From the IMG/VR virus record IMGVR_UViG_2921473944_000001, positions 15,954 to 79,953 of that record: a DNA stretch of 64,000 nt; one strand, given 5' to 3'. Numbering within the stretch: position 1 is the stretch's first letter; each line of letters opens with the position of its first letter. Both the position numbers and the translations under genes were made by a program. The notes under the pieces were generated by a model, which did not search any database, was not told the origin of the DNA, and saw nothing but the letters and a program-made list of their open reading frames with translations. Shown here piece by piece: positions 8,782-37,021 of this stretch. Origin of the DNA: a virus. Lineage: Duplodnaviria > Caudoviricetes.

Positions 8782-9309
8782 TCATCTGAACTGTTTTCTT
8801 AATTGTTCGATGTCATCAAGATTGGATTTAGCATAATCATCGAATTTTTCCATCGAGTATTTTGTGCATAGCAGCTTAGCTTTTTTATAATTTGAATTAC
8901 TACAAATATCGTGGATTAACGCTCTATTATAATGCTTGGACATAGTTTTTTCGAATAATTTTTCATATCCATCGACATATGATTTATCGTTCACGTAGTC
9001 ATGGTTAGTAGCTCTTTTACCTAATTTTTTGTCGTATTCTTTATTGTACTGCTAAGCCTTTCCGTTATTCATTTCATTAGCGGCTTCGTTGTATGCCTTA
9101 CGATATCGTTTTGAATCCCCTTTATTAATATCCTTACTAGCTTTGTTGAGATATTTTCTATATTCTTTAGATACTTTATTTTTACCAATGTCGGTTAAAG
9201 TTCCGTCTGAATTCTGATATTTCCTGACACCCCACTTCATACCTTTAACTCCGTAATGTAAGAGTTCTTCTTGGTTACTTCTTGAAAATATGTATATATT
9301 GTTTTGCAT
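8782..9309 (-). pseudogene. HxGVKGMKWG-motif protein interrupted by one in-frame TAG (9052-9054)
   Basis: ORFs 9052..9309 and 8782..8994 share a frame; reading through TAG gives ...NNGKA*QYNKEYDKKLGKRATNHDYVNDKSY..., 175 codons. Confidence 0.75.
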
Positions 9310-9364
9310 TATTTCTATTCGTCACCTTTCTTTTACTTGCATAACAAGTATTTATAGCAAATTA

Positions 9365-10120
9365 TTATATATAGCCCATGAATTTTTTTACTTTTTTCGC
9401 TGCATTTATAACGTCTCTGATATTCTGTGAACTAAACTGAACTAGACTACCGTTTAACGTGGTTTGATGATTGCTCAGATATCGGTTAGCGGCATATGCT
9501 CCACTAGTTACGGCCGCTGTTGTAGCTACTGATTTTGCAGTCATCGTCATACAACGTTTAAGTGCTGCCTTTTTCTTAGAACGTTTCGCTGACACTTCAG
9601 GAGCACGCCTTGCGTTGGCTCTTTCAATGTCGTGCTTGCTCATTAACCTGTTATACTGTTTCTGAAGTTGCTTGTTTGTCGGGTCTAAGTCCAACTGTTT
9701 CTTTACTTTCTTAGCGTCGCTAAGGTATTTACGTGAAAGGTCCGATCTGACTTCATTCTTAATCTGACCTTTTCGATATGTTGTGTTTCCTTTTAATGAT
9801 TTCTTATAAGCTTTCATATCTTGCTTGTATTGAGTTTTTAAAGTCTTATCTGACTTATTGTTCTCGTAAGCACGTTTAGATAGATTGGCTTTCTTACCAA
9901 GTTCCACAGCGTCAGCTTTTTTCTTAGCGTTTTTGCCCCAGTTCTTAAAACTAGCATCAACCTTTTCGTTTGATCTACGGGCGATTGCTGCTCTAACTCC
10001 AGTCGAACTATAAGTAGATTTACGCTTACCCCACTTCATACCTTTAACGCCATGGTGATAGAGTTCTTCTGGATTATTAGTTCTTGAAACTACAAATTTA
10101 GTGTTATTTTTTTGATACAT
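9365..10120 (-). CDS. HxGVKGMKWG-motif protein, highly basic (putative internal virion protein)
   Basis: ELYHHGVKGMKWG at N-terminus; very K/R/A-rich helical body. Confidence 0.7.
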   Translation of the reverse strand: MYQKNNTKFVVSRTNNPEELYHHGVKGMKWGKRKSTYSSTGVRAAIARRSNEKVDASFKNWGKNAKKKADAVELGKKANLSKRAYENNKSDKTLKTQYKQDMKAYKKSLKGNTTYRKGQIKNEVRSDLSRKYLSDAKKVKKQLDLDPTNKQLQKQYNRLMSKHDIERANARRAPEVSAKRSKKKAALKRCMTMTAKSVATTAAVTSGAYAANRYLSNHQTTLNGSLVQFSSQNIRDVINAAKKVKKFMGYI

Positions 10121-10137
10121 TATTTTCCTACTTTCTA

Positions 10138-10166
10138 TTGGTATTGAACATTTTTTGTGCTATAAT
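10138..10166 (+). promoter_or_regulatory. Host sigma-A type promoter for the EcsC moron
   Basis: TTGGTA (10138-10143), 17 nt spacer, TGc-TATAAT (10161-10166) extended -10. Confidence 0.7.
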
Positions 10167-10208
10167 ATTTTCAATAATTTTTTGAAAATTAAGTTAGAGG
10201 TGTGCATT

Positions 10209-10847
10209 ATGGCTAAGGAAATAATAACTGAAGAACAGATAACATCAGTATTGAACAAATGCTATGCGATGGCTCTTGGTGGGTTACCAAAAACTCAATC
10301 TTGTTACGAACTTGCTGAACATTACATAGAAAAATACAAAGATCCGAATAAGGCCGTGTCTGAATTTGTAAAGTGGCAAGTGGCTAAATGTTCCACGTCA
10401 GGTTTTCTAACCAGTCTCGGCGGAATCATAACTATGCCTGTAGCTATTCCAGCCAACTTAACTAGCGTAATTTATATCCAACTTCGAATGATTGCAACTA
10501 TCGCTATTATTGGCGGGTACAATCCTTCAGACGATGAGGTTCAGTCATTAGCATTCCTTTGTCTGACTGGGGCTTCAATGAGTAAAGTATGTCGTGAAGC
10601 CGGCATTAAATTTTCTACGAAGTTGACCACCAGTATGATTAAGAAAATTCCTGGCGAAGCACTTAAGAAAATTAATCAAAAAGTTGCACAACGTTTTATT
10701 ACGAAGTTTGGAACTACAGGAATTATAAACCTTGGAAAAATGGTGCCGGTCGTTGGCGGCGTTGTTGGAGCCGGGTTTGATTTCGTTGGAACAAACGTCA
10801 TCGCTAAGAAATCGCGACAGGTATTCTTGGATGGTGTAATAGAATAA
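10209..10847 (+). CDS. EcsC-family protein (moron, the only convincing plus-strand gene)
   Basis: GFLTSLGGIITMPVAIPANL, QLRMIATIAIIGGY, KMVPVVGGVVGAGFD resemble the EcsC family; start refined to ATG 10209 after GAGGTG. Confidence 0.7.
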   Translation: MAKEIITEEQITSVLNKCYAMALGGLPKTQSCYELAEHYIEKYKDPNKAVSEFVKWQVAKCSTSGFLTSLGGIITMPVAIPANLTSVIYIQLRMIATIAIIGGYNPSDDEVQSLAFLCLTGASMSKVCREAGIKFSTKLTTSMIKKIPGEALKKINQKVAQRFITKFGTTGIINLGKMVPVVGGVVGAGFDFVGTNVIAKKSRQVFLDGVIE

Positions 10848-11915
10848 TTAACTCAAATAATCAGCAGTTTTACGTCTTACATATGCGTTACACTCTGAAA
10901 CAGTTTTATTACCCATCTTACCCAATACTCCGATCGTACTTGCTATACTTTCTTTAGCAATGCGTTCGGAGTTGTATTTTCTATACATTTTATCTACAAA
11001 TTTAGGATTCGTTTGAGATACGGATTGCAGTTTAACCGAATCTGTATCAAACACGATCATTGGGCGTTTTGCATGATAGCTAGAATATTCTTTGTCGTTA
11101 TAATCGAGTAATGCATTGTACCCTTTCTTTTTCAGCTCCGAATAAAATCTATCTTGAGCAGCAATTTCCTGTGAATTATGATTAGTTAACGATAAATTCA
11201 AAGCTTTATACACCGCTATTTTCTGGCTTTTTGTCATAACGCTTGGGTCTTTTTTTAATGCGTTTTCAGCTTGTTTGAATAATATCTGTTGTGCTGGGCG
11301 TTTCATTTTTGATTTTGAATCTGCTATAGATGCCACAACGTTAGACTTGAAATCTTTTTCTTTCAATAAATTAGCTGTAATATGACCAGCGTTCTCATCA
11401 GATGGCACTTTAAGTTTTTTGGTTGATGAAATCTTTAACTGATAGACTTTCATGTTATCACTAATGGATCTTAGTTCTTTGGCATTTGCTAAATCGGATT
11501 CACTACCCGAAACATGTGCTTGTTTCTCAGCTTGCTTAGCTGCAGCGTTTGCTCTACTGGTTAGGTTCTTACCGAATAAGCCCATATACTTATCTGAATC
11601 TTGTTTTTTATATGTAGCATAGAAAGCGAAACTCTCGAATTCTTTGCTTGTTTGTATTCGTGAGAATGTAGTGCCTTTTTTCAGATAAGTGTCTGCATAT
11701 TGTTTGCCAGTTATCTGTGTACGTGCCATATTAGTAAGGTCTTTGACTTTCATTCTTGATAACGCAGCGGTTCTGGCAAATTGTCCAGTCGATTTGTTTG
11801 CATAGTACCGCTGAATTCCAGCCGGGGTTCGAGTCCCGTCAGCGAACTGGTATTTTCGTACTCCCCATTTCATACCCTTAACTCCGTGGTGGTATAACTC
11901 GCTCACGTTAATCAC
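10848..11915 (-). CDS. HxGVKGMKWG-motif protein with possible ADP-ribosyltransferase-like domain
   Basis: LYHHGVKGMKWGVRKYQ N-terminus; TFSRIQ / FYATY / KKGYNALLDYND..PMIVFD pattern. Confidence 0.55.
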   Translation of the reverse strand: MINVSELYHHGVKGMKWGVRKYQFADGTRTPAGIQRYYANKSTGQFARTAALSRMKVKDLTNMARTQITGKQYADTYLKKGTTFSRIQTSKEFESFAFYATYKKQDSDKYMGLFGKNLTSRANAAAKQAEKQAHVSGSESDLANAKELRSISDNMKVYQLKISSTKKLKVPSDENAGHITANLLKEKDFKSNVVASIADSKSKMKRPAQQILFKQAENALKKDPSVMTKSQKIAVYKALNLSLTNHNSQEIAAQDRFYSELKKKGYNALLDYNDKEYSSYHAKRPMIVFDTDSVKLQSVSQTNPKFVDKMYRKYNSERIAKESIASTIGVLGKMGNKTVSECNAYVRRKTADYLS

Positions 11916-12439
11916 CCCTTTAGTTCTTTAATAGCTAATGCAATACCCAATGCAGAGCTGGTGACTGCTAGTACGTTTCCGGCTGTTTCCAGAGTTCTAC
12001 TCGCGTATTCTCTACCTTTTGATTCTTTTTGTGGATTAAACATATCGTTGTACTGTCGTTCTAAGATTTCTCTATTGATCTGGCTACGCATTTCCTGATC
12101 AGTCATGTTTGATAAATCCATCTTTGGAACTTTACGATTTCGATTAGATGTATCGACGGTACGTTTTAAATCGTTAGATAGATTCCGGCTAGAATCTACC
12201 AGTCTTTTACTGCGCTCAGTATCTTCTTTTGCATATCGATTTGCATCAAACTCCAAGTCGCTTCGACCATTTTTCTTTGACTGTTTATAGTATTTGCCAC
12301 TAGACTCGTCATATTTGTTGAATTCTTTCTCTCTAGCGTCTCGAGCGTAACGTTTCTTTCCAATATCAGTCATGCTTCCGTCTTTATTCTGGAATCTACG
12401 TACTCCCCATTTCATACCCTTAACTCCGTGGTGGTATAA
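11857..12439. repeat. 41-bp perfect direct repeat (11857-11897 and 12399-12439) encoding LYHHGVKGMKWGVR
   Basis: cgtactccccatttcatacccttaactccgtggtggtataa occurs identically at both positions. Confidence 0.92.
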
Positions 12440-12481
12440 TTCTTCTGCATCAGAATCTCTTGATACTACATGGTCGTTCAT
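11912..12481 (-). CDS. HxGVKGMKWG-motif protein
   Basis: LYHHGVKGMKWGVRRFQNKDGS; C-terminal hydrophobic helix. Confidence 0.7.
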   Translation of the reverse strand: MNDHVVSRDSDAEELYHHGVKGMKWGVRRFQNKDGSMTDIGKKRYARDAREKEFNKYDESSGKYYKQSKKNGRSDLEFDANRYAKEDTERSKRLVDSSRNLSNDLKRTVDTSNRNRKVPKMDLSNMTDQEMRSQINREILERQYNDMFNPQKESKGREYASRTLETAGNVLAVTSSALGIALAIKELKG

Positions 12482-14448: not shown

Positions 14449-14721
14449 TCAAACAGCAACTTTAACACTTCGCTTAACTTTCTTGAAGATACTCAAAGGA
14501 TTTACAGTAAGGATTTCGTCGATTGCTCTTTCCAGTTCAACTACTTTCTCTTTCTCAGTCATTCCATCAAAGTAATGAGAAACTCGATCTACATAACCAC
14601 AACAATTGTAACCTTTTTCCATGTCGTAATCATACCAATTATCGAAGTCATCAATTGGATCGAAAGGATTGTCAATGGTTGTCAAAGCAATGTAAGTTTC
14701 TGTAATAGTTTCTTGTGGCAT
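14449..14721 (-). CDS. Conserved acidic protein downstream of the RNAP gene
   Basis: LTTIDNPFDPIDDFDNWYDYDMEKGY; starts 1 nt after the RNAP stop. Confidence 0.65.
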   Translation of the reverse strand: MPQETITETYIALTTIDNPFDPIDDFDNWYDYDMEKGYNCCGYVDRVSHYFDGMTEKEKVVELERAIDEILTVNPLSIFKKVKRSVKVAV

Positions 14722-14722
14722 C

Positions 14723-17700
14723 TTAGATCACTTCCTTTCCTTTAAGATACTTACTGATTGTTGATGTAGAGAAGCCAGTCTTCTTTGCTATCTCTTCAAG
14801 TGTATAGTTTGATGCTGCTAATGCTTTGAATCTGGCAGCCTGTGCTTTACTTGGTGATGTTGTAGTTTTAGGCATAGCTCTCTGTCTTAACTTATCTATA
14901 TCCGTATTATTAAGAATCTGGTCAAGTTTACTAGCACTAATAGCACCAGCCTGTATAGCCTCCCACTCTTTGTCTGTAATCTCTATGTTACGCTGTGATC
15001 GCTTAGCAGAACCTACTTCATTACGATATTTGGATATGGATTTCTGTCTGAGCTTACGAAGATCTTCTTTACTCATATTAGGATCGTTCTTCTGCTTCTC
15101 TTGAATCTCAGTATTAGCCCTGCGCATAGCCTCTCGCTCCTTAGGCTGGTTCTTCTTAGCCTCCTTGAGCTTAGTATCCAGTGATGTTACTTCAGTCTGG
15201 TACTGTTTACGCATAGCCTGGTTGTATGCTATATCTTTAGTGTTAACTATTTCCATTCTGGCTTTGTTACCAAGTGCCTTCATATCATTAGCATACTCAG
15301 CATATACCAGTTCCATTTGATGCTTCTTAGGTGATACAAGAGACATTGCATCGTTTGTTTCAGCCATCTTTGTACTGACCTGATTACGCTGTTTAACATG
15401 GTACTGTATTTTACCCGTACTATCTGTAAAGGTTACTTCCCCAGTCTCTTTGTTAATATGCTGTACCGGGTAGTACTTCTTAGCAGCTACCTTATCCTTA
15501 GGATCATAAGAAATAATCTTACCGTCTTCCGTACGGATGTCCACCATACCAGTCTTCTTATTCTTTCCTTTGTCGGCATAGTACAATTTTTTAGGGTCCA
15601 TAGTCTTCCATACTTTAGCACCGTCTGGTAGGTCTGGATTATAATCTTTTGTACCCGGAGCATTAATCTTATAACCGCCCTGTCGTTTAGCTACTGAATA
15701 CTGTCCTTTAGCACTAGACAACAATGTTGAAGCTCCACCAATCTTGATACTTCCGTCTGGCTGTATGCTCTGCTGGAATTCAGCTTTAAGAGCAGAGATG
15801 TTATTCTCTTTCTCACTAGCTTTATAATCAAGATGATGTTTCTGTGCATCGATAACAACCATACTATGCCGTACGGCTCTAGCTATCTTTTCTTCACTGG
15901 CTCCGCCGAGTGTCATATCCGTAATAAGGTTAGAAATAACGCCCATCTGTTTCTGAGTATCTTTCATTATTGGATACTCATGACCATTGCGTGTATAATG
16001 TTCTACACCGTTAGAATCGACGGTTTTAGTTCCGCCATATTCAACTTTCGGATCAAATCCCTCAAGCCCTTTCAATGGACGTTTGTTTTTGATTTTTATT
16101 TTACCGCCTGCATCATTCGTAGGGATACACATTACTGTATCTCCGTCAAAATCTGCTCCAGATAACTGGTCTGCGATTTTATGATTGATACCTACAGCAT
16201 CGATGCTTTCTCCTGAAATAATCTTCTGTCCAAGCTTATTCTTGTTGTTTACAGTAAGAATAGGAATCTCAAAGATACCTCCATGCGGGTAACGAATTAA
16301 TGCTAGTTGTGTTCCTGTAGCATAGTTAGGTGCATAGATTTCGTTGTCTTTCAAACTATTAATAGGAATAATAACATGGTATCTCTGTCCCGGGAGAGCA
16401 GCTGCTTTCAAATGTACTGCTGCAGAATCACATCCGTCAGCAAACTTTTCAAGTAAGTGTTTCTTGATAGTAGGATTCTGAAGACTACAGATTTCATCGA
16501 ACTCAGCGAGCTTGTCAGCTTTAGCAAGTCCTAACTGTTTCTTTGCCAGTGGCACTGCTTGTTTTGAAAGGAACTGTGATGGTAAAGCATTTGCCCATTC
16601 AGTCCAGTCACCCTCATCAGCTCTTTTATTAATGAGTCCGAGTTTCGGTTTACCAGTCTTCTTATCGGTATACCAATACTGTCCGCCCTGGTCCGCATCT
16701 TTAATTAATGAACCAAACGGATTATCCGGATCATCTTTGATCTTTTTAAGTACATCGTTTTGTGGAGTTCCGCGTTTCTTATTAGTATTGAACACAACGT
16801 CTACTCCGTCAGGCATATTATCAGAATATACAGCCATACCTTTAAGGTAGTGAGTACCATCGACCATGATACGAACCTGTGAATATTTAGAATCGCCTAA
16901 TGATAAGTCCTGAACTCCTCTACGAAGTTCAATGATACCATCTTTCTCAATACCTTTAGTTCCATCACTGTCCGTATCCTCTGCATATCTGATCAGAAGT
17001 CTCTTAGAATCAAGACTTTCCGGATATGTAAATTTTCTGTGATATGTATCGCCACCATCATTAGACTGGTAATCTGTAATAGTCTTTACTTTACTGTAAT
17101 CGTAGATATCTGAGTTCTTTGTTCCAGGAAGACACAATACTTTTTGGTTTGTCTGTTGATTTGCATTTGTTGGCTGAGGAATACCACCACCATAAATAGG
17201 ACAATCTTCAGCTTTCTGTAAATAATCAAGGGCTGTATCAAGTCGTGTTCTTGTAATACCGAGATCCTGTTCTACACCAGCACCAACGTCAATCATGCCT
17301 TTCTCTTTAAGCTGATCTCTAAGAAAGTTAACTGTCTCCATAGTCTGATTCATGTTATCTTCTCTCGATGGTTCTAATAGCGATCTTACTGTCGATTCAG
17401 AAATACCCATTTTTCTACCAATTTCAGTAGCACCAAGACCATCAGCTTTTAAACTTTTAGCTGTCTGAACCTGATCCAGACGTACTTCATATTTTGCCCA
17501 GCTTACCTGTCTGCGGTATTCAGTTGATGTTAGCCCCATAGATTTATAGATAGCTTTCTCGCCCGTGAACTTCTCTCCTGTTTCTGGATCAGTCCATGTA
17601 AATCCATCTTTCTTCATTTCTTTTACACGACCGAGGAAGTCACTGCCGTGTTGGTAAGGTGATTCCCCTGATCCATATGGGTATCGTCCGCTTCTTCTTG

Positions 17701-17863
17701 GCATACCATAATGCATAGCATCATTTTCGCTTTCAGCAATACCAAAACATTCAGCAATCTCTTCCGCTACTTTATTGGTGTCCGAATGTCTTATTGGTTC
17801 AGAATTATCAATAGTATCGGCTAATCCATAGTACGACATTATTTCTTCTGCTATTGGGTTCAT
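14723..17863 (-). CDS. Single-subunit two-barrel (YonO-like) RNA polymerase with terminal HTH domains
   Basis: Catalytic GADFDGD; upstream IRYP; QVRI..YLKGMA second-barrel motif; HTHs GLGATEIGRKMGISESTVRSL and YTLEEIAKKTGFSTSTISKYL. Confidence 0.8.
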   Translation of the reverse strand: MNPIAEEIMSYYGLADTIDNSEPIRHSDTNKVAEEIAECFGIAESENDAMHYGMPRRSGRYPYGSGESPYQHGSDFLGRVKEMKKDGFTWTDPETGEKFTGEKAIYKSMGLTSTEYRRQVSWAKYEVRLDQVQTAKSLKADGLGATEIGRKMGISESTVRSLLEPSREDNMNQTMETVNFLRDQLKEKGMIDVGAGVEQDLGITRTRLDTALDYLQKAEDCPIYGGGIPQPTNANQQTNQKVLCLPGTKNSDIYDYSKVKTITDYQSNDGGDTYHRKFTYPESLDSKRLLIRYAEDTDSDGTKGIEKDGIIELRRGVQDLSLGDSKYSQVRIMVDGTHYLKGMAVYSDNMPDGVDVVFNTNKKRGTPQNDVLKKIKDDPDNPFGSLIKDADQGGQYWYTDKKTGKPKLGLINKRADEGDWTEWANALPSQFLSKQAVPLAKKQLGLAKADKLAEFDEICSLQNPTIKKHLLEKFADGCDSAAVHLKAAALPGQRYHVIIPINSLKDNEIYAPNYATGTQLALIRYPHGGIFEIPILTVNNKNKLGQKIISGESIDAVGINHKIADQLSGADFDGDTVMCIPTNDAGGKIKIKNKRPLKGLEGFDPKVEYGGTKTVDSNGVEHYTRNGHEYPIMKDTQKQMGVISNLITDMTLGGASEEKIARAVRHSMVVIDAQKHHLDYKASEKENNISALKAEFQQSIQPDGSIKIGGASTLLSSAKGQYSVAKRQGGYKINAPGTKDYNPDLPDGAKVWKTMDPKKLYYADKGKNKKTGMVDIRTEDGKIISYDPKDKVAAKKYYPVQHINKETGEVTFTDSTGKIQYHVKQRNQVSTKMAETNDAMSLVSPKKHQMELVYAEYANDMKALGNKARMEIVNTKDIAYNQAMRKQYQTEVTSLDTKLKEAKKNQPKEREAMRRANTEIQEKQKNDPNMSKEDLRKLRQKSISKYRNEVGSAKRSQRNIEITDKEWEAIQAGAISASKLDQILNNTDIDKLRQRAMPKTTTSPSKAQAARFKALAASNYTLEEIAKKTGFSTSTISKYLKGKEVI

Positions 17864-17865: not shown

Positions 17866-18495
17866 TTACATACCCTCCTCATGAATTCTTTCCATAGTTC
17901 TACAATGTTGAATAATACAATCCATCACTGGTAAAATGTCATCAGCTGTTGGTTCGTCATGAATAATTTCATCATTCTGATAGATACATAATTCAACATC
18001 AATATCTCCTGGTTTTACTTTATACTCCAAACAGAAAAGAGCAGCATATGCCAAAAGTTGTTCCATTTTTGCAGGTGCTGTGCCGGTTTTTAAATCGTGT
18101 ATTCTCAAGAAATTATTTCTAAAAGAAATAGCATCAGCTGTTCCATAACAATATGGTGAATAATATAAAATCTGTTCAGGAGTAAGTTTGAACCCTACAC
18201 CGTCATTTACATAGTTCCTAAAGTTACCATAGATACGTTCCATGTCGATTACATTTCTTGGGATACCGTCGCTCAGTAAATGAGATAATACTGTAAGGTC
18301 GTCATTTTTCTTAAGCTTTAGCCCATTTCTGATAAGTGTTTCAGCAAGCTCATGTAATGATGTCCCCATAGCCTGTGCGTAGCTACTTACATATTTCTGG
18401 TAAAGCTGCTCATCCGAATATCTAAGCCAGTGAGGTTGACTAGGTGATAACGTAGCGTGTTTACCGCGTAAGTCATAATGCTTTTCAAATATCAA
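17866..18495 (-). CDS. Cas4/PD-(D/E)XK exonuclease (DUF2800-like)
   Basis: HATLSPS, GTSLHELAE, PEQIL, YGTADAI, IHDLKTG; start refined to TTG 18495 behind GGAGG. Confidence 0.75.
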   Translation of the reverse strand: MIFEKHYDLRGKHATLSPSQPHWLRYSDEQLYQKYVSSYAQAMGTSLHELAETLIRNGLKLKKNDDLTVLSHLLSDGIPRNVIDMERIYGNFRNYVNDGVGFKLTPEQILYYSPYCYGTADAISFRNNFLRIHDLKTGTAPAKMEQLLAYAALFCLEYKVKPGDIDVELCIYQNDEIIHDEPTADDILPVMDCIIQHCRTMERIHEEGM

Positions 18496-18508
18496 TGTAG
18501 TGTCCTCC

Positions 18509-18799
18509 TTATGTATTGAAATGGTTTTGAAGTTCTGCCATAACTTCATCTTCATTTTCCGGAAATATAAATGCTGCGTAAGACATCTGATTCATCTTAT
18601 CTACGTAGTAATCTTGATTTGGCTGATGACTAGCTTTTGCACTTTTCTTAACTTCTAGTGCAGCCCAAGTATTCTCGTAAAATATGGTCAGATCCGGAAT
18701 GCCCTGCAGATATGTTGGATCATTTTTCAGTACAATGCATCCTGGAAATTCATCTTTAATTCTCCGGATAAGTTTAGACTGAAATTTAGATTCTAACAT
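18509..18799 (-). CDS. VRR-NUC domain nuclease (resolvase-like)
   Basis: ESKFQ, GIPDL, ALEVK, QPNQ motifs. Confidence 0.8.
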   Translation of the reverse strand: MLESKFQSKLIRRIKDEFPGCIVLKNDPTYLQGIPDLTIFYENTWAALEVKKSAKASHQPNQDYYVDKMNQMSYAAFIFPENEDEVMAELQNHFNT

Positions 18800-18892: not shown

Positions 18893-19050
18893 ATAAATAT
18901 AGACAAAAAGAAGGCGCAATGTTTGTCCGATTTGTTGTTGATTGACTGCTTGTTTTTTGCAAATCGGGAGACATTGTACCTTCTCTTCATAACAGGATAA
19001 GTTTTAGTGACGGGCATCGAGTGTTGTAAAAATAGTAGTTTTTGGGCAAA

Positions 19051-23085: not shown

Positions 23086-24709
23086 TTAGTTCTTTTCAGT
23101 TTTCTTCTTTTTCTCATGATAATCTTCGTATAACGATGCTACTAAACATACACCAGCTCCGATCCACATACCACGTATTACGCCTCTAATAGCCGTGTTA
23201 AAACCGACATTATACATTTCACATGCCTGATTATATAACGGTTTAATATAGTGTTCGTCATGTGCTACTAACTGGTTTAATACCTTAAAATCAGCATCAT
23301 CCATATACTTCAATTCATCTTTCTTTCCAAACATAGTCTTTTTCTCCTTTCAGAATCTAAAATATTATTACCATAACAGCCTATGAATATGTCGCGAGAA
23401 ACAAGAAGAGTCCTAGATTTTTCTAAGCCCCCTCTCAAATACTGTTAGATTTTAAATCCTTTTAAATATCCATTTTTTGGTTAATTCTTCCATCATACAG
23501 ATATCGCCTTCACCATAAAAGAAATCAGGCACACGATGCATAAGCTGCAATGCTTTCTTAGTTGCCACTAAATCTCTTTTTAATACTGATAATTTATCAT
23601 CAAGTAAATCAAGATCACCATTGATCCTTATAGTCGTCAATGCATCATCTAATTTCATGCTTAATGAAAATTTACGCAGTGCCTTATATCGAATCTCTGC
23701 AACTCTAGCACGCTCAGCCATTACTAATTCGCGTTCTATCTCTAATTCCTTAATATGCTGTTCTAAATCTGTTCTTGTCATAATGTTACCTCTCTTTCTA
23801 TTTTAGGGTTTTAATTTCTCATAACAGCCTAAGAAAGTATCGCGAATAAAATAAGAGAGCATGTCTAAAATATAGATCAAGCCCTCTTGCTTCGTTACTT
23901 CTTAAATTTTTCCTTGACACGTTCCTGAATAGTTCCGTCCCATACCCATAAATATAGACGATACCAAAACATCGCAAACGTTAGAATTATCTTAATCAGT
24001 ATAATAATTGGCATTAATATCCATCTAATAATTCTAGCCGTTTGGTCCAATTTTGCATGATCCTCTCTATTTATAGTTTGTTTTTCGAATCTTTCCATAA
24101 CTGTTTCCTTTCAAATCTTAAAATATGTATTCCATAACAGCCCATGAAATAGTCGCGAGAAACAATCATACAAGTTTTCTGCCGCAGTTCGGACAATATT
24201 TAATCGGAATATCAACACGAGCAATACTACCAATACCAGCAAGAGCATATAAGTCAGCCTGCAAAATAGGTTCTCTAGCAGTGTCTGTCTCAGTAATATA
24301 TAATCGCAACCCCAATGCATCGGGAGTATCACCAATACCAATGAAAGCACCACCGATATCATTAGTCATATCAGGCTTACCATCAATAGTTTCAACTTTA
24401 CAAAATTCACACATAATTAATACCTCCTTTAAAATATAGCGGTTCTAAAAATGAGACAAAAGAAGAGCCTAAGTCAATTAAGACCTAGGACTCCTACCGT
24501 GTTAACGATTATTTTTAATGCTTCTTTTTAGCAATATGACGGAATTTGAACTCAATCCCGATATTCATAACACTTGTCATGAATTTACAAGCATCAACGT
24601 GCTCCATGCCAAGAAGTTCTAACTTCTTAATACACTTCCCAGCCTCGAGCTGTAATTCTTGAAAACTCATTTCTCTTGCTTTTACGTCAGTAATTTCTTT
24701 CACTTCCAT
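23086..24709 (-). other. Array of single-gene cassettes (23086..23334, 23452..23781, 23895..24098, 24166..24414, 24515..24709)
   Basis: Promoter motifs at 23370, 23818, 24131, 24746; terminators at 23024, 23399, 23847, 24457, 24774. Confidence 0.75.
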
Positions 24710-24822
24710 TGTCAATTCCTCCTTATTGAAACGTTTGTTAATCTTTCTATAACAGCCCATGTAACATTCGCGAATAAAAAGAAGAGCCGTCGTATATTTC
24801 AACTAAGACTCCTCCATTCCCT

Positions 24823-25227
24823 TTACAGATAAGGTTTAATTTCTCTCAGATGATTTTGGATTTTTCCTATTTCGTCGAGCTCACTACATAAATCGGCATA
24901 TCGTTTATCAAGATAGTCTAAATATTCATCCAATTCTTGCTGATCACGAACCAAGTTTCTCTTACCTATAAGCATACGATAATCTGGATTTACGTTATTC
25001 AATGATGCTGCTGGTATCGCATAACAGAAATTATTTCCGTATAGTGTGCCAGGAATATCATTAAAATCCCATTCCTTCTTCGTCTCGTTTATAACCAGAT
25101 AAGCCCTGATCTGTCCGGTGCTAATCCATGCTCTAATTGTCGATTCTCCGACTCCTAATAAATATGCAGCTTCTTCGATTGTGTAATAGTCTCTCATCAT
25201 ATTTTTACCTCTCTTTCTGAATATCAA
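24823..25227 (-). CDS. Excisionase-like/HTH_17 DNA-binding protein
   Basis: YYTIEEAAYLLGVGESTIRAWISTGQIRA. Confidence 0.75.
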   Translation of the reverse strand: MIFRKRGKNMMRDYYTIEEAAYLLGVGESTIRAWISTGQIRAYLVINETKKEWDFNDIPGTLYGNNFCYAIPAASLNNVNPDYRMLIGKRNLVRDQQELDEYLDYLDKRYADLCSELDEIGKIQNHLREIKPYL

Positions 25228-25685
25228 TTTTTCTTTTCTGCATAAGAGAGCCTGTTTCTATCGCGAGGGATAAAAGGATCAGCATCGAAAAATAATAATG
25301 ACATTGTATGATCACAATAAGCATAGTGACGTACCTCAAACGTAATATACAGGTCATCTTTTAATAAAAAGTTTTGCTCAACACATGGTACACACCCGCA
25401 CGTTCTAATGTGATGACAATGCAATCTAATTCTCTTATCATAGACTGGTATAACTCTTACACAATATGTGTCATCGTAACATCTATAAGCCGGATAATTA
25501 AGTTTCTTAAACACTTCATGCTGTTCCTTATCAATTTTAGCCATATAATGATAAAATACTCTATCACCAACAATTCGCTCAGATAGACGATGCTTTGTGA
25601 TATACGCTTTCATTGTAATTTCTTCACTATTTATAAATTTCATAGTATTCATTCCCATACCATACACTCCTTTTAACTTAAACAT
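25224..25685 (-). CDS. Hypothetical protein
   Basis: 153-aa ORF, coupled to the next gene. Confidence 0.55.
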   Translation of the reverse strand: MFKLKGVYGMGMNTMKFINSEEITMKAYITKHRLSERIVGDRVFYHYMAKIDKEQHEVFKKLNYPAYRCYDDTYCVRVIPVYDKRIRLHCHHIRTCGCVPCVEQNFLLKDDLYITFEVRHYAYCDHTMSLLFFDADPFIPRDRNRLSYAEKKN

Positions 25686-25748
25686 ACAATAAAAAAGAGC
25701 CTAAGCCATTTCTGACCTAGACCCTTCTGAATCTGAAAATATCGATGT

Positions 25749-25820
25749 TTACTTGTTCTTACCACCACGAGTTTCTCTTACTGTCTTTTCACCGTCATAA
25801 TATACGATTGTGATTTTCAT
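25749..25820 (-). CDS. 23-aa peptide MKITIVYYDGEKTVRETRGGKNK
   Basis: GGAGGTG RBS, sigma-A-like promoter upstream, terminator at 25690-25728. Confidence 0.55.
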   Translation of the reverse strand: MKITIVYYDGEKTVRETRGGKNK

Positions 25821-25848
25821 ACGTCTCACCTCCATTTAAGTGAAACCA

Positions 25849-25876
25849 ATTCTATCACAAATATAAATTAAATCAA
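25849..25876 (-). promoter_or_regulatory. Host sigma-A-like promoter
   Basis: TTGATT, 16 nt, TGa-TAGAAT. Confidence 0.5.
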
Positions 25877-25935
25877 GTATTGACTTATAAGAACTAGAAA
25901 AACAAAAGGGGCAAGTATATCACCCCTCTGAGAAA

Positions 25936-26229
25936 TTACTGATGAATATAAATCTCATAAACATCAAGATTATCATCATTGTAAATATCAACTTCGAATT
26001 TCATACCCATACATTCAAATGGATAGTCTTCATATAGTTCCGCGTCATTAGGTAGTAATAACGTTGTAGATCCTCCATCAGGAAAACCTATAGTTATACC
26101 CCAATTAAGCGGACTTTTAATAAAGTACACTTGAAGCATGAACAGTTCACCTGTATTGTCGACCTCTAATCCAATATTTACGAAATCACTTTTACGACTC
26201 ACCTGAATTCCTCTTATATTTTTGTTCAT
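25936..26229 (-). CDS. Hypothetical acidic protein (own cassette)
   Basis: Promoter motif 26251, GGAGG RBS, terminator at about 25898-25928. Confidence 0.65.
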   Translation of the reverse strand: MNKNIRGIQVSRKSDFVNIGLEVDNTGELFMLQVYFIKSPLNWGITIGFPDGGSTTLLLPNDAELYEDYPFECMGMKFEVDIYNDDNLDVYEIYIHQ

Positions 26230-26491
26230 ATTGAACCCTCCTTTGTTTTTTTCATAACATAGTAGGATTCTATCGCGATTTCTAGTAACCTCTGTACTTT
26301 AATTATTCAGCCAGTCCTCGAGCATCTTTATAGCAGCATTTTCATACATCTTACAAGTCTCGTTTACTAACTGTTTATTAAACATATCTTTGGTTTTACA
26401 CTGACCATCTGGATAATCTTCAGGATTGGCTACTTCTATCTCACATCTCTCGAAAAATGGACAGGTAAGGCATTCATGAAGTCTTCTAAGT

Positions 26492-26878
26492 TCATTCCTG
26501 CTCAGGTTCATGTAAATCACCCCTCTGTTCACCCGGATTCAAATATTCAATATTATCTCCAAAATCAGTAACAGTAATTCCCCAGATCTTAGTCGGAGCG
26601 AAAAACTGCTGCAATAGAATCTGAGCCTCATCAACGAGAAGACCTTTACGCATAATGTCAGTATTCATAAAAGGTTTATTCTGCTTCATACGGAAGATCT
26701 CTTCAACTGAAAACGGTTCCGGAATATCATATCCCATGTCATTTGCCTGCTTACGAATATAATCAGCCATGCATCGGCTAGGAGCTACGATATAAGCTCC
26801 AGTCTCTGCCGACTTCTTAATCAATGTTGCAGTTTTACCTGAACCTCTAGCCCCTACATAAATATCCATCCTATTCAT
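26492..26878 (-). CDS. Small stand-alone P-loop NTPase
   Basis: Walker A GARGSGKT, Walker B LLVDE, only 128 aa. Confidence 0.7.
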   Translation of the reverse strand: MNRMDIYVGARGSGKTATLIKKSAETGAYIVAPSRCMADYIRKQANDMGYDIPEPFSVEEIFRMKQNKPFMNTDIMRKGLLVDEAQILLQQFFAPTKIWGITVTDFGDNIEYLNPGEQRGDLHEPEQE

Positions 26879-26883
26879 AATAA

Positions 26884-27482
26884 TTACTCCTTTTCTTTAT
26901 CTCTTAATGTACAAACCAATTCATATATCATCTCTTTAGCTGTAAGGTCTGTACGAGCTTTCATAACGCCCTTGAAATAATACTCTACGAAAATATCAAT
27001 AGCTCTTTCTCGATTATCCTCACGAAGCCAAACCATACCATTAAATACATCGCCCTCATCGCCACTACACAGATACTTATGTCCATTATGATATGATTTG
27101 AAATATGCACGCCCACGAGTACAGTTTGATATAAGACCATATACGTCATCAATGTATTCAAGCGTACCTTTCGTAGACTCTAATTTACCTCCAAATATCC
27201 AGTATAACCATACTTCATCCATATCTAACTCTCCTGTGTAGCCCTTAATACATGTCCTACATTATCGACATAACACTCGTGCCAAATTGTGATAGGTTTT
27301 TCATCACCATCTGTAAGGTCAATCCAAGCTGCCAACACTGTATGATTAAATCGCATAGTTTCTACAGCTAACAACGCCGAGTCCAACGATAAACAACAGT
27401 CGTATGAACTTTCTCGATAAGCAAATCTATTAAAATTATCCTGAATAATATAGTTAGTCCAATATCTTTTCATTCTTACCAC
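26884..27482 (-). other. Two hypothetical proteins (26884..27222, 27225..27482)
   Basis: Packed ORFs with RBSs; the first is paralogous to 29727..30065. Confidence 0.6.
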
Positions 27483-27543
27483 CCTTTCTAAAAGAAAAAA
27501 GAGAAGCTAATTAAAGCCTCTCTTAATATTGTTCATCAATCTG

Positions 27544-28653
27544 TTATAAACTACCACTTGCGTTTGACAACCATGGGTCAGCACTCGGCAGCTTTGCCGT
27601 ATATTTTTTCACAAACTCATCTGGTGCAATACGAACCGGACTCTCAACAGTATCAACATTAGCTGCATATGTTTCCGACTCGACATCCATCATATCAAAT
27701 AACCAATCTGTAATAATATCCATAGCCCATGAAATATCAAATGTGCTACCAGCAGCTTTTGGATGACCACCGCCTCCGTAATTATGAGCAATTTCAGTAC
27801 CAAGATTAATATTGTCTCGAATTGTACGATAGCTAACCCTGCCACGTGAAATATCAATCATAGCAATGTAGGCAAACTCAGGATGTATCTCACACAGACG
27901 ATTACCGAGCTCACTAAAATACCGTTCAGCAAATATAACACCATATGTATTACCCCACTGGTCTGTTTTAACTGTAATCTGTCTCTCCTTTTGCTCTACA
28001 TAAATATCAATGTCTTTCTGTTTCTGTTCAAGTAAGAGTGTATCAGTTTCTGAGAACCACTCGTCTTGATGTAATGGCGAAGTACCAAACATGATACGCT
28101 TCATAGCCAGCTCAATGAATTTATCTCTACCATAAATATGAAAGAGATCGTTCATCTGCTTACTAACAAGTCCGTCTTCTCCTAATTCTTTCCAACGCCA
28201 AGTATCATAGTCTCGAACTATAGACACGAAACGAGATATTTTATTTTGAGTTGTCTGATCGTACGTAAGACTTAAACTATTACTCACATATAAATAGAAC
28301 AATTCAGTACCACTAGTCTTTACAGCATCTAAATATTCATATACAGTACACCAAAAGTAGTTATCCAATCTAAGAGCAGTTCCATGATGGTCAAATAAAC
28401 GTACTGTTCTCTCAACCTTATCTAAACAGTCAATCATACTAGCTACCTGATCGGAGACCGAAATATCAGTAATGAAAATCGAATCGTAACTCCTGTACAG
28501 ATCTTCGTTTTCCATGAATGCTTCTACTTTATCATCCACATCGTCATAGTTACAATACTCAACATCAACATTCTCTTTACCAAATGCCAAATACGCTAAA
28601 ACAGCACATCCGATACCGTCAAGATCGATATGTGTGAATATTTTAATTTTCAT
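27544..28653 (-). CDS. DHH/DHHA1 phosphoesterase (NrnB-like oligoribonuclease)
   Basis: THIDLDG, ITD, FDHH, SGT, GGGGHPKAAG motifs. Confidence 0.88.
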   Translation of the reverse strand: MKIKIFTHIDLDGIGCAVLAYLAFGKENVDVEYCNYDDVDDKVEAFMENEDLYRSYDSIFITDISVSDQVASMIDCLDKVERTVRLFDHHGTALRLDNYFWCTVYEYLDAVKTSGTELFYLYVSNSLSLTYDQTTQNKISRFVSIVRDYDTWRWKELGEDGLVSKQMNDLFHIYGRDKFIELAMKRIMFGTSPLHQDEWFSETDTLLLEQKQKDIDIYVEQKERQITVKTDQWGNTYGVIFAERYFSELGNRLCEIHPEFAYIAMIDISRGRVSYRTIRDNINLGTEIAHNYGGGGHPKAAGSTFDISWAMDIITDWLFDMMDVESETYAANVDTVESPVRIAPDEFVKKYTAKLPSADPWLSNASGSL

Positions 28654-28668
28654 AGATTTAAATCTCCT

Positions 28669-31600
28669 TTATTTGTAATATAAGTCACGCTCTTCCAAAG
28701 TGTTAAAGTGTGGAGGATTATCGTAACTAGTACTGCCACCCTCGTTTTTCGTCTTTTTAGGTCTACCTACTTTTTTCTTAGCTGGTTTTGAATCAGCATA
28801 TGACTCCCGAATATCAGAAACCTCTCTTTGTAATGCCTTGACCGTATTGTTAAAATTCTCCCGAATATCTTCATAAGACATCTCCATCCATTCTTTTCTC
28901 TGAGCACACTCTTCAGGACTTCCGCATCTCGCATACTGTCTATACTCAAATAGTAAATTCTCCAATGCCTTCTTTCTTTTTACATCAGACAGACTACTAC
29001 AAAGTTCTTCTACAATTTCTAATTCTTTTATTGTTAACATAATATTAATTCTCCTTTTATCTTACTTTTTTGATATATATAGATGAATATCTGAGTCGTT
29101 TCCAACAGTTTTGAACTTATATACTCTGGATTGTAAAATATCGTCTGATAATGCTTCCATAGCAACAATAGCTCTTGCTGAGAAACGACCACATGGCTCA
29201 TAGACATGAATTGTGATATTCTGCCTCTCATCGAGAATTTTCAAAACGTCAATAAGTTTAAAACGACCATTCTCCATCACCTTTTCGTTTTTCTCAATAT
29301 ATTCCTCTACATTTGCAAACACAGCTAATGGGTCTAAATCAGTTTTAGAATAATACCATAAAACATTATAATAAGGGATTCCTTCCTCAGCCGCACATTT
29401 AATCTTCCTGATAGCCGTGCCATCGTCATCAAATAGTTTTAAATAACTAGTACCAGGCTCGTAAAAATCACCGTCAAAATATGCCTCTCTATGATATAGA
29501 ATAGCTTTGTATTCCTTAACTGTAGTTTTGCCACTTCTAACATAAGCCCATACACTTCCCATACATTTCATAATATTAATACCTCCTTACATTTCATAAT
29601 ATATACACCAACATGTAACATATCGTAAGAATCAAAATCATCCAGTACTCCCAGTTGAGAATACCATACCCCATATGATTTAATATAAGACCTTCACCTA
29701 ACATAATCAGTGCGCTAATAATAAGTCTAAGAAACTGTCCCATTACTAATACTCTCCTCTATCAACTGCATTTTCAAAAGGTTCGTAAAAGTAGTCTTTC
29801 TTCTCTGCAGTGCTTCTTCCAACTTATTAATCTTCTCATTCTCATCTTCCATGAAAATATCAATAGCTTTAACCTTGTCTGCTTTTGGGAACCACACATT
29901 ATGGTTATACAGAACACCTGGCTTCGGATCGCAAGTCAGTACACGAAGAATCTTTCCATCGTCATTAATAATTCTAAATATAGCCTTATATTTACCCCGT
30001 ACCTGTAAATCCCCTTCATACTCATAGAGCTTTCCTCTGTAAAAATTGTATAAATATACTTTCATAAATATCGATCCTCCTCTATATTCTTACACCGCTT
30101 CCTGGTACGTTTTGTGAAATACATATGATGTTTCATTCGACAATCTTTCTTATCCGCGCCATTATGTAAATACGAGTTTCTTGCTTTTCTCTTTTTATTT
30201 TCACTTGCCATTAATCATATTCCTCAAGTTCCTCTGCTTTGAATTTAGACACCGCATCATATATAAGTTTCTTAATAGCTTCATGATTGTCAATAGAAAA
30301 CCTATCTGGTAATGAAACAGTCCCGTGATATATCTTTTCATCGAAATTGCTATAAGATTTAACATTTGTTCTAACCAGGCGACTACTATATATAATTTCA
30401 CGTGACGTTACACCGATACTATCACGCATACTGAATCTAACACCACGATTTATTTTAACATGCGCTAATTCTTTACCATTACAAATAGGATATTCTTCAA
30501 TACGCATTTCTTCCAAGTCAGCCCCTTGATGCAAACAAACATAACGTTCAGCGTCTTCCCGATTTATACATATCGTTTCAATATGATAGTCTGAATACTC
30601 ACCAGCAGTCACTACATATATTTTATCTAACTTATTCATACTGTACACTCACTTTCACACCAGACATGTCTTTAATAGCTTCATCGATTATCAATTTAGC
30701 TGCTTCCTTCTGACAATCGTTTGATAGAAAATCGAGATTGACATTGATATACTCTTTTCTGCAAGTTAAAATTATGCTGATTATTTTGTACATCTCATTT
30801 TTCTGATTTACACTAAACGTATCGCATATCATCGGTATAGTCATAATACTCTCCTTTTCTCACGCTTCCTCTAATTCGCCAAATATTTTTTCATAAGCAT
30901 TAATGTCATATTTAAGTAACATACATTTAGCTGTTTCTTCGTCAATAACAAGAGCATCACCTAGTTTAAATACAATAAGCCAGCGTCCCTTTATTGATTT
31001 ATATAATTTTACATTCACTGAGCGTTCGAATGTACTTAAAGCATACATACACTTAGTAGATATACAATCCATTTTATCAGTATCGTATTTCAGACCATTA
31101 TACACATAAACCATAATAAAATTACTCCTCTACAATATCTTCTATAGTGATAATACGTGACTGCAGAATATCACTCAAACTTTCATCATGCTCAACTTTA
31201 TGTTTAGCTACCATGTAATTGCAATAAAATGACGGAGAATGCATAATCCCAAGCAACACAAGAAACTTATACAGCTTACTATTAACACACTTCTTATTCC
31301 AATGTTTCCATACTTTTAATCTTAATAACATTGTCTTACCCTTTTCTTTCTACGATCTCCTTATATGCAGTAACATCCCAGTTATTACCATCTCCTGACC
31401 AATCTAACAACCATCGAATTTCGTCGATAGTCAATTTCAGAACATATTGTTTGATAAATATATGCATAGGTAAATCATTCTGAAAATACCGATAGCGACA
31501 TCTATATAAAACATCATCTCTAAGATTCGCCATATTTAATTCTGATGTACTAGGTCTACCACGTTTGCTTTCCATAAACTCATTTCTCCTCTCTAGTAGA

Positions 31601-32004
31601 TACAATCACACTAAGTTTACAGTCATAATTACTCCCACGGACCTCCTTAACTTCAAGACTCCGAAAATCTAAAGCAAGATATTTGAGAGCATATAGTGGT
31701 CTAATAGTACCAATAGGATTAAGACGATCGTTGAGATATAAATCTACCTCTATATCTGGTCCTGCTACTATCAAAACATCATTAAGCGTCATAATTATTT
31801 CTCCTCTCCGTTTATTACCACGACAATAGCGTTAGACGCTTCCGAAGCTTTGATATTAAGTACCTTAGCCTCAATCGTGTATATATTAAAACATTTAAGT
31901 GCATATAAAGGTTTTATAGCACAAATGTAATGTGAATCATCATTCTCGTACAACTCTATAGTGACCTCAGGATCTGTCACCGTTAAAACATTATCAAGCG
32001 TCAT
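28669..32004 (-). other. Operon of about 12 small hypothetical proteins incl. tandem paralogs 31580..31792 and 31795..32004
   Basis: Contiguous minus-strand ORFs; includes unlisted short ORFs of about 50 aa at 29590-29743 (membrane) and 30064-30210 (basic). Confidence 0.6.
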
Positions 32005-32079
32005 AATTATTTCTCCTCCTTATACTTTCATTACAAAAATAAAAGAGCCTAAGTCAATCAAGACCTAAGCCCCATCGGT

Positions 32080-32460
32080 TTAGATTTCGTCCAAGATAAT
32101 TCCCTGTGGTTTGAAGTCTAACAAATATACAAAACTCTCGCCCTGACGATATATCGTATAAATATCACCTACAGTCATTCCTTCTTTATAAATCCAACCC
32201 ACTAACTGTCCATTCTTTGTTCTCGAAAAACCCAGCATATCGTAAGCTTCGTTCAAGAATAAATATCCTCTAGTCGCCAACAAATCATACATATATTTTC
32301 GTTGGTTATTTAAAGTAAACCTATTCATGACGTTGTCTTTCGTCCATAACTGGTTATTCTCGTCAAAAAATCTACTATAGTTGTCCTCCTCAAGCTGAAT
32401 GACTACACTATCAGTACCAACGTTATCGCCAGACATAAGCTCTCTCAATTCATTTTTCAT
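32080..32460 (-). CDS. Stand-alone C-terminal domain of the DUF6353-like family (own cassette)
   Basis: RGYLFLNEAYDMLG..GQLVGW matches QGYLFLNDVYEMLG..GQTIGW of 58683..59606; promoter 32495, terminator 32035. Confidence 0.7.
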   Translation of the reverse strand: MKNELRELMSGDNVGTDSVVIQLEEDNYSRFFDENNQLWTKDNVMNRFTLNNQRKYMYDLLATRGYLFLNEAYDMLGFSRTKNGQLVGWIYKEGMTVGDIYTIYRQGESFVYLLDFKPQGIILDEI

Positions 32461-32512
32461 AATTCATTACTCCTTTCGTGACTACAAATCTTTTACCATA
32501 ACAGAATATGAT

Positions 32513-32710
32513 TTATTCGCGTCTACCGCGTACGGTTCTTTTATACTCTTTGCTCATTAGATCAACAAAAATATCAGAGCGAGTACGCCCTGTCTTAGCA
32601 CTCAACTCTGATAACATAGCTGCCTCTTCATCATTTAACCGAATCCGAATACCTTTTCGCTTAGCGTTCACTTTTGGCGGTCTACCTCGCTTTTTAATCA
32701 AAACTATCAA
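32513..32710 (-). CDS. Ribbon-helix-helix DNA-binding protein with RGRP motif
   Basis: KKRGRPPK..IRIRLNDEE..ML..L...GRTRSDIF. Confidence 0.7.
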   Translation of the reverse strand: MIVLIKKRGRPPKVNAKRKGIRIRLNDEEAAMLSELSAKTGRTRSDIFVDLMSKEYKRTVRGRRE

Positions 32711-33419
32711 CTCTCCTTATCTTCTTCTATTCTACGTCCAGCCCCATAGCAATCCTGTAAGTATCTTCTATATACAGCTGCCATATCATCACGAGCTCGT
32801 CTCATAGCTTCAGCCATTTGCTTATCATAATAGGTATTCTTCATTGTCATTTTGTTATGATAGAAATCTATAACAACAGCATCATCCATAAGTGGGTAAC
32901 TCTCTCCTATAAATATTTCCATATCGCCATAACCAGCATTCGATATCTGAGCAAGTAAATTACGCAATGAATCAACCGTAAATTGTTTTCCCATAAAGAT
33001 CAGTCCTCCTCTTCTCTGCATACTGGACTATCAATATCCCTTTTCTTGTAGACGTCACCTGTGGAGTTAACCCCATAGTTAGTTTCTTCATGACAACGCT
33101 TTAAGAACTCTGCTTTTTCATCAGTATTAAGGTCGTAGATTCGATTAAGAAAGTCATCTGTAGGCATATCGATACGCTTGTGTATAAACATATAATTTTG
33201 AAGCCTATCCTCACGAATAAGCGGCTCGTTGGATATATGTAAGAAATCAAAAAGTTCATGTACGCAATCGTTGCACAGATCGAAACATCTACCTGTAATG
33301 TTCCTATATGCACTATCTAGTTTAATATAGTCGACGGTCTCACCTTCATAGCGCAACGATGTGTTTTTATTCCTAATATAATATTTACCACATCTATCGC
33401 ATTTCTTAGCATCACTCAT
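32707..33419 (-). other. Two hypothetical proteins (32707..33021, 33000..33419)
   Basis: Overlapping ORFs; the second has CDRC..CNDC. Confidence 0.6.
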
Positions 33420-33465
33420 AATTCTTTACCTCCTAAAATTAATACAAAAGAAAAGAGACCCTAAA

Positions 33466-34525: not shown

Positions 34526-34534
34526 CACCACTAA

Positions 34535-34765: not shown

Positions 34766-34767
34766 GT

Positions 34768-37009: not shown

Positions 37010-37021
37010 CGTTCCCCTCTT

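Follow-up and report, generated by a model that had tools for sequence, protein, structure and literature searches.

Single-chain RNA polymerases of the two-barrel type are encoded by several phages. The characterized phage relative of the enzyme considered here, YonO of SPbeta (839 amino acids), is a proven processive, DNA-dependent enzyme that transcribes 37 late genes from one start site; its ability to recognize promoters by itself is not established, and its presence in virions is not reported (Forrest et al., 2017; PMC5467207). For the Thermus phages, both non-virion (P74-26 gp62 and P23-45 gp64) and virion (P23-45 gp96) enzymes of this type have been described (Chaban et al., 2024; PMC10770324). 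A further family, phrog_4291, includes gp75 of Lactococcus phage 1706, which was recognized as one of five YonO-like families in a study that also defined eight invariant residues of two-barrel polymerases (Ruprich-Robert and Thuriaux, 2010; PMC2919709). This family was later described in actinophages and in Lactococcus and Faecalibacterium phages by authors who noted helix-turn-helix (HTH) domains at both ends, a DxDGD loop and an HHpred match, with alignment, to the RNA-dependent RNA polymerase (RdRP) family PF05183, and who suggested polymerase activity (Koert et al., 2021; bioRxiv 10.1101/842583). Here, we analyze a further member, a 1046-residue protein encoded in a 64,000-nucleotide (nt) stretch of phage DNA (the window; bases 15954-79953 of the 79,953-bp virus record IMGVR_UViG_2921473944_000001).

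We consider it fairly probable that this protein is a single-chain, DNA-dependent two-barrel RNA polymerase that finds its own promoters through its HTH domains and may be packaged by means of an N-terminal peptide. The identity of the gene is not news. The protein matches phrog_4291, annotated as 'RNA-dependent RNA polymerase', with E=0 and 1133 bits, and homologs carry this name or 'helix-turn-helix DNA binding domain protein' in GenBank. Any claim to novelty in the initial annotation, which was made from the DNA letters alone, therefore fails for the family, its DxDGD loop and both HTH domains, all of which were already published as a prediction. In a tblastn search, at least 80% of the query was covered in 249 of the 250 matching phage records, which comprise Arthrobacter, Gordonia, Streptomyces, Lactococcus and Faecalibacterium phages as well as uncultured gut phages; an exhaustive search yielded 877 clusters (at 50% identity) with E<1e-30, and a nucleotide search of the phage collection gave no match. 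The Lactococcus, Gordonia, Streptomyces and Arthrobacter proteins are 36-42% identical to ours over 95% of the length and share its DxDGD loop, its HTH domains at both ends and its N-terminal HYG...SGRYPWGSG motif; nothing essential differs, and the gut-Firmicutes polymerase adds an acidic leader of ~45 residues. In the literature that we searched, there was no biochemical work on this family, and neither virion proteomics nor a discussion of the polymerase was found in the Arthrobacter phage papers. The hypothesis of a packaged, promoter-reading polymerase is, as a whole, absent from that literature. What the present analysis adds are the conserved block at the genome end, a promoter-like motif that does not fit sigma-A, the lack of a recognizable sigma factor, the half-resemblance of the N-terminus to a DUF7211 tag and the label of the homolog in GenBank record EU081845.

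The gene lies on the minus strand, as do 124 of the 132 greedily chosen open reading frames (ORFs) of the window (most of the eight plus-strand ones are short); a plus-strand reading of the interval was ruled out by its many stop codons. Its product contains the GADFDGD, IRYP and basic motifs pointed out in the initial annotation, with one correction: the last had been written as Q.R..KGM, of which the residues are present and the spacing is not, the actual sequence, QVRIMVDGTHYLKGM, following the pattern QVR-x9-KGM (Table 1). In an alignment of 113 homologs, each 43-59% identical to the polymerase, residues Q329, R331, K341, G342, D355, R524, P526, D571, D573 and D575 are invariant, and strong conservation extends to a pair of helices (residues 640-676). 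Given these invariant residues and the match to phrog_4291, the motif matches are not due to chance. Apart from GADFDGD, the proteome of the phage has no DxDGD-type motif, and a search for a second polymerase gene by such a motif across the genome found none. The IRYP motif fits the invariant R-x-P that precedes the aspartate loop in two-barrel polymerases (R446/P448 in Rpb1), whose β-like barrel carries two basic residues (K979/K987 in Rpb2; PMC2919709). Judging by pattern and by position in the aligned core, R331 and K341 are probably the equivalents of the latter, the first being an arginine and not a lysine, and both D355 and D308 (at least 90% conserved) are candidates for the counterpart of Rpb2 D837, the fourth acidic residue conserved in two-barrel polymerases.

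An AlphaFold2 model with this alignment as input (predicted local distance difference test, pLDDT, 88.5; predicted template-modeling score, pTM, 0.84) is disordered at residues 1-73. Foldseek matched it to solved enzymes in the order QDE-1 (E 1.5e-9), plant RDR2, P74-26 gp62, P23-45 gp64 type (PDB 8f72), P23-45 gp96 and Rpb1 of RNA polymerase II, while the matches in BFVD were P23-45 gp64 and phage models named 'RNA dependent RNA polymerase'. In VIA-align, maize RDR2 scored Z 15.0 and QDE-1 (2j7n) Z 14.9 (358 residues, root-mean-square deviation 4.1, model residues 281-875), followed by gp62 (Z 12.3) and gp64 (Z 11.5). Given the confidence of the model and this set of matches, two double-psi β-barrels that form the active site are present in the predicted structure; the comparison with QDE-1 that was to decide on the fold thereby bore out the proposed two-barrel polymerase, as did the invariance of its Mg-binding aspartates, R-x-P and basic motifs. 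The best structural matches over the core, QDE-1 and the plant RDR2 enzymes (PDB 2J7N, 7Y7Q and 7W82; Z 14-15 over ~360 residues, deviation 4.1-4.7), nevertheless differ from the phage protein in being eukaryotic RNA-silencing enzymes of 10-15% identity that lack HTH ends and have no phage context. At the sequence level, neither the protein nor the 113-sequence profile found the core in the PDB; both matched entries only at the HTH ends. The proposed membership in the class of YonO, likewise a single-chain two-barrel phage enzyme and about as large, stands for the catalytic motifs: in hhalign (P 0.24), the 113-sequence profile aligned only RYPH with RSPH (in LRSPH) and DFDGD with DNDGD (in FDNDGD), and similarity beyond these motifs is not significant.

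An HTH domain near each end, as had been claimed, was detected by Pfam, which found no other modules in the protein. The N-terminal one resembles region 4 of sigma-70 factors (HTH_23, E 8.8e-7; Sigma70_r4, E 1.4e-6), has model helices at residues 145-152 and 156-162, and was matched in six-frame translation by the NCBIfam model TIGR02937 (sigma-70 factors of the extracytoplasmic function, or ECF, type) with E 0.005. The C-terminal one is preceded by a conserved three-helix unit (residues ~955-1000), and residues 949-1041 gave a sub-threshold, region-4-like match to positions 81-155 of the same model. A profile search of the whole phage returned no sigma region 2, and in its six frames the ECF-sigma or region-4-like matches were restricted to the two HTH domains of the polymerase. 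As far as profiles can tell, the phage is without a recognizable sigma factor.

It does have a candidate promoter. In the window, CGCGA-N13-17-TWATR has 21 copies where 1.9 would be expected, all of them on the sense strand. Most copies, for which we derive the 25-nt consensus given in Table 1, lie directly 5' of a ribosome-binding site and ahead of early or middle genes; none was found in the virion-gene half, in the polymerase block or on the opposite strand of the whole genome. By our reading of the sites, neither their hexamers nor their spacing fits sigma-A, and a scan of window positions 13300-21200 for sigma-70-type promoters and terminators gave nothing above the shuffled background. 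Across 80 related viral contigs, whose polymerases are 47-98% identical to ours, the motif occurs 109 times in sense and 5 times in antisense orientation. Of the 73 contigs whose upstream sequence is long enough, 42 carry a copy with the consensus CGCGAAAAAWACATnCCCTKTTATGARGAGAG at a distance of 813-1313 nt upstream of where the polymerase starts; from the lengths of the two genes upstream, we take it to stand just before the operon of endonuclease, Cas4 exonuclease and polymerase. In this phage, the corresponding zone holds a weak variant with a weight-matrix score of 16.6, compared with at least 22.9 for the 20 sites from which the matrix was built; it could be a promoter of the polymerase operon that is attenuated or regulated in another way. 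Co-occurrence, as judged from these genomes, links the motif to the phage group and to the polymerase operon, without thereby proving which enzyme reads it. The initial suggestion that built-in HTH domains read promoters is accordingly backed by circumstantial evidence, namely the confinement of sigma-like matches to these domains and the presence of a promoter-like motif.

At the motif copies at 24773, 33736, 34064 and 52349 (minus strand), the longest-ORF calls read through the motif and produce spurious N-terminal extensions; RESFLGCYRKIKE, for instance, is added in this way to four small ORFs that are unrelated. The true starts probably follow the AAGGAGG behind each motif. Separately, AATCAAAATG (window 122-12516, minus strand) has seven exact sense copies, six of them in the virion-gene region; with at most one mismatch, there are 24 matches against 12.7 expected.

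The third distinctive part of the protein is its N-terminus. Most members of the family begin, at most ~20 residues from the start, with a peptide of the form acidic-x-L-x-H-Y-G-[VT]-[KP]-..-S-G-R-Y-P-W-G-S-G-x-x-P-Y-Q-H, in which, by the numbering of our protein, G53, S58, G59, R60, G64 and G66 are invariant and H51 is nearly so among the 113 sequences. Here, it is preceded by a variable acidic leader that ends in an acidic-hydrophobic-x-His pattern, as found in the DUF7211 tags of the phage (E-E-L-Y-H-H-G-V-K-G-M-K-W-G) and in the linker of its capsid protease. When a profile of these tags was aligned to the profile of the whole polymerase with hhalign, the best local alignment fell on residues 44-55 (P 0.013), and in six-frame searches of Rhodococcus phage ReqiPoco6 and Gordonia phage Tanis with DUF7211, the next-best matches were at the N-terminus of the polymerase (E ~0.005). 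All five polymerase-encoding phages examined have between two and eight DUF7211 matches. The motif can thus be said to half-resemble a DUF7211 cargo tag, so that the 'tag variant' of the initial annotation holds at the level of these alignments and not at that of a Pfam call.

The linker (residues ~150-335) belongs to a 645-residue fusion of head protease and major capsid protein (window 3617-5554, minus strand) and contains six acidic-hydrophobic-x-His motifs, which are candidate maturation cleavage sites resembling the starts of the DUF7211 tags; their presence fits the idea that acidic-hydrophobic-x-His is a site of the head protease. Examples are DDELTH, DDVEH, QEILTH and DAFLEH, and the linker also has a duplicated segment, ADVFNTLT..QKTVVY.MIGQALE. 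A DUF7211 motif at a different location, EHSGVKGMKWGVKNGPPYP, occurs near residue 180 of a 325-residue early-region protein (window 34932-35909, minus strand), where it is placed between a DUF5662 and a DUF6883 domain and is not N-terminal.

As for the virion itself, the record of phage 1706 (GenBank EU081845) labels orf75, the polymerase homolog with the same N-terminal motif, as 'structural protein', a label repeated in a note of the ReqiPoco6 record. It likewise applies to orf7, which has two DUF7211 motifs and lies just before the large terminase gene, a position that matches that of the tagged genes here. Virion packaging, which the initial annotation had raised as a possibility, is therefore supported circumstantially, by this label and by the resemblance to the tags, and virion delivery of the polymerase is plausible but unproven.

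The surroundings of the gene are conserved as well. Downstream follow a gene for a 90-residue protein, a gap, a candidate small terminase, an HNH endonuclease, a virion protein, the four DUF7211-tagged genes, the large terminase, the portal and the protease-capsid fusion. Genes for endonuclease, Cas4 exonuclease, polymerase and small partner also stand in this order at the genome end of Gordonia phage Tanis, Rhodococcus phage ReqiPoco6 and two Lactococcus phages, 1706 and P162, that is, in phages of two phyla, and in ReqiPoco6, an annotated cohesive (cos) end lies beside the block. Many of the related viral contigs end 300-450 nt past the polymerase gene, as fits a fixed physical genome end (cos) after polymerase and partner. 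The small protein, proposed initially as a partner of the polymerase, keeps this adjacency in both phyla and is encoded at the equivalent position in P162 and Tanis with 36-39% identity (E 1e-17). Its AlphaFold model is confident (pLDDT 92.7), and searches placed it in no Pfam or NCBIfam family, matched it to no PDB sequence and gave neither a usable ESM Atlas match nor a solved fold above Z 3.7. The GC skew of the window shifts near 20 kb, from about -0.1 (positions 1-20000, virion genes and polymerase) to between -0.25 and -0.38 (20001-64000, early region), even though nearly all genes lie on one strand; in composition, the polymerase block is like the virion module.

Table 1. Coordinates of the polymerase gene, its parts, its neighbors and the associated DNA motifs in the window
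Feature	Window position	Strand	Basis or remark
Two-barrel RNA polymerase gene P0001	14723..17863	-	ATG start, 1046 residues, single chain
Variable acidic leader, residues 1-50, ends A-M-H51	17714..17863	-	Homolog matches begin at ~44-57; pLDDT <50
N-terminal motif HYG-x4-SGRYPxGSGxxPYQH, residues 51-72	17648..17713	-	Low pLDDT
N-terminal HTH, residues 138-163, sigma-70 region 4-like	17375..17452	-	Pfam HTH_23, Sigma70_r4, Sigma70_r4_2
Catalytic two-barrel core, residues ~279-875 (predicted)	15239..17029	-	Range aligned by VIA-align to QDE-1 and maize RDR2
QVR-x9-KGM, residues 329-343	16835..16879	-	Basic residues R331, K341 of first (β-like) barrel; invariant columns
IRYP, residues 523-526	16286..16297	-	R-x-P motif (R524, P526) of second (β'-like) barrel; invariant
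GADFDGD, residues 569-575	16139..16159	-	Mg-binding aspartate loop D571, D573, D575; invariant
C-terminal HTH, residues 1014-1044	14732..14824	-	Pfam HTH_38, HTH_3, HTH_31; model helices
90-residue partner gene, translationally coupled	14449..14721	-	phrog_4303; starts 1 nt past the polymerase stop codon
Small endonuclease (18509-18799) and Cas4/PD-(D/E)XK exonuclease (17866-18555)	17866..18799	-	phrog_3953, DUF2800, phrog_93
Four DUF7211-tagged 'cargo' genes by the terminase gene	9052..12481	-	PF23847, E 2e-12 to 3e-9
Candidate promoter TCGCGA-N6-C-N5-CTnTTATG (25 nt)	23372..62761	-	21 copies, all gene-oriented
Weak variant of the candidate promoter	18987..19013	-	Keeps C-N5-CTGTTATGA, CCGTCA for TCGCGA; 1150 nt upstream of the polymerase start

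Taken as a mechanism, these features would work together as follows. By its predicted fold and its invariant residues, the core sets R331 and K341 of the first barrel opposite R524, P526 and the three aspartates of the second, with DNA as the presumed template. The sigma-region-4-like HTH domains at both ends would most likely recognize the candidate promoter, and if they read this phage element, no host sigma factor would be needed. Behind the acidic-hydrophobic-x-His site, the N-terminal peptide may direct the enzyme into the procapsid, a step whose chances we put about level; the head protease might then trim the peptide, and the enzyme might enter the cell with the DNA and start the transcription of the early genes and of its own operon, for which the balance appears similarly even. 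The 90-residue partner would be a conserved accessory. A model for the tag is offered by the internal proteins of phage T4, where a short N-terminal capsid-targeting sequence on unrelated proteins loads cargo into the head and is cut by the prohead protease. The peptide discussed here has no sequence relation to that of T4, its putative cut site is acidic-hydrophobic-x-His, and its role in loading is a proposal. Phage RNA polymerases packaged in virions include N4 vRNAP, crAss gp66 and P23-45 gp96. Among virion-borne two-barrel polymerases, P23-45 gp96 and gp66 of phi14:2, a crAss-like phage, transcribe the first genes; like the enzyme proposed here, the Thermus phage and crAss-like polymerases are phage single-chain enzymes that read phage-specific DNA motifs. 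They are nonetheless of other families, gp96 being fused to the tape-measure protein and gp66 lying within a giant protein, whereas the present polymerase is free-standing, with sigma-4-like HTH domains and a short N-terminal peptide. More tentatively, and with somewhat greater doubt than confidence, we suggest that it represents a third and very widespread lineage of virion-delivered polymerases in phages of Firmicutes and Actinobacteria: free-standing 100-kDa enzymes with sigma-4-like readers, loaded into siphophage heads by a DUF7211-related peptide, trimmed by the head protease at an acidic-hydrophobic-x-His site and, once injected, transcribing the early genes and their own operon from 25-nt promoters.

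Several points weigh against this interpretation. The literature searched contains no enzyme assay for any family member, and both the DNA template and the recognition of promoters are our inference; YonO, the characterized relative, serves late genes and has not been reported from virions (PMC5467207). The similarity to the cargo tags is weak in hhalign, and Pfam finds no match of DUF7211 (PF23847) to residues 1-89 at E<=10. The label 'structural protein' is the depositors' annotation, and in EU081845 it is also borne by orf62 and orf71, two small proteins encoded elsewhere than in the virion-gene module. The link between motif and polymerase consists of co-occurrence among related phages: phage 1706, with an enzyme of 36% identity, has one copy of the motif against 0.5 expected and so does not share it, and in our own phage, the only candidate in the zone upstream of the polymerase operon is the degenerate site.

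The competing explanation that deserves most attention is that the polymerase acts as YonO does: a non-virion enzyme, produced in the course of infection, would transcribe the late (virion) genes as a single long operon, with something else reading the CGCGA motif. YonO's transcription of the late SPbeta genes from one start site (PMC5467207) offers a precedent, across the genome end, the polymerase gene is followed directly by the packaging and virion module, and this module, being devoid of CGCGA sites, needs another start signal. We nevertheless hold it to be unlikely, if by no means negligible: it leaves 21 sites that do not fit sigma-A with no recognizable sigma factor or other candidate to read them, relatives have the motif ahead of the polymerase operon itself, the depositors of the phage 1706 sequence labeled its homolog a structural protein, and the invariant, disordered N-terminal peptide would have no role. 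A part in replication or recombination, for example in making primers or R-loops at an origin, is suggested by the place of the gene in a nuclease and helicase module by an iteron-like region, where its conserved neighbors are an endonuclease, a Cas4 exonuclease, an HNH endonuclease and a helicase. This is quite improbable in our view, since the phage encodes a primase-polymerase fusion of 1411 residues (window 52674-56909, minus strand; phrog_4210, E=0), so that the two-barrel enzyme is not needed as a primase, and since 21 dispersed sense sites ahead of ribosome-binding sites find no explanation in an origin.

That the best structural matches, QDE-1 and RDR2, belong to RNA silencing, and that Koert et al. 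(bioRxiv 10.1101/842583) obtained an HHpred match to PF05183, could also indicate an RdRP that copies phage or host RNA, for instance into double-stranded or antisense RNA. Against this stand the two to three DNA-binding HTH modules of the protein and its occurrence in a double-stranded DNA phage with a phage-specific, promoter-like DNA motif; hmmscan with Pfam gave no match to PF05183, the eukaryotic-type RdRP family, at E<=1. In addition, YonO is DNA-dependent and QDE-1 is described as accepting DNA templates too (PMC9508822), and we regard this possibility as very improbable. Finally, the name 'helix-turn-helix DNA binding domain protein', which is all that many annotators have given to these proteins, would suit an HTH regulator whose polymerase core is dead, a view that is hardly credible given that every catalytic-site residue is invariant in 113 sequences of only 43-59% identity to the polymerase.

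If the preferred interpretation, a packaged polymerase that reads its own promoters, is true, this family would provide a compact, promoter-finding polymerase of the cellular-polymerase fold and show how a minimal two-barrel core can recognize promoters when sigma-like modules are fused to it, a matter that touches on the evolution of RNA polymerases. It might also yield a new orthogonal transcription tool. Bench systems exist, as cultured phages of Lactococcus, Streptomyces, Gordonia, Arthrobacter and Faecalibacterium carry the family. For the phages themselves, such an enzyme would explain how early genes can be expressed independently of the host polymerase.

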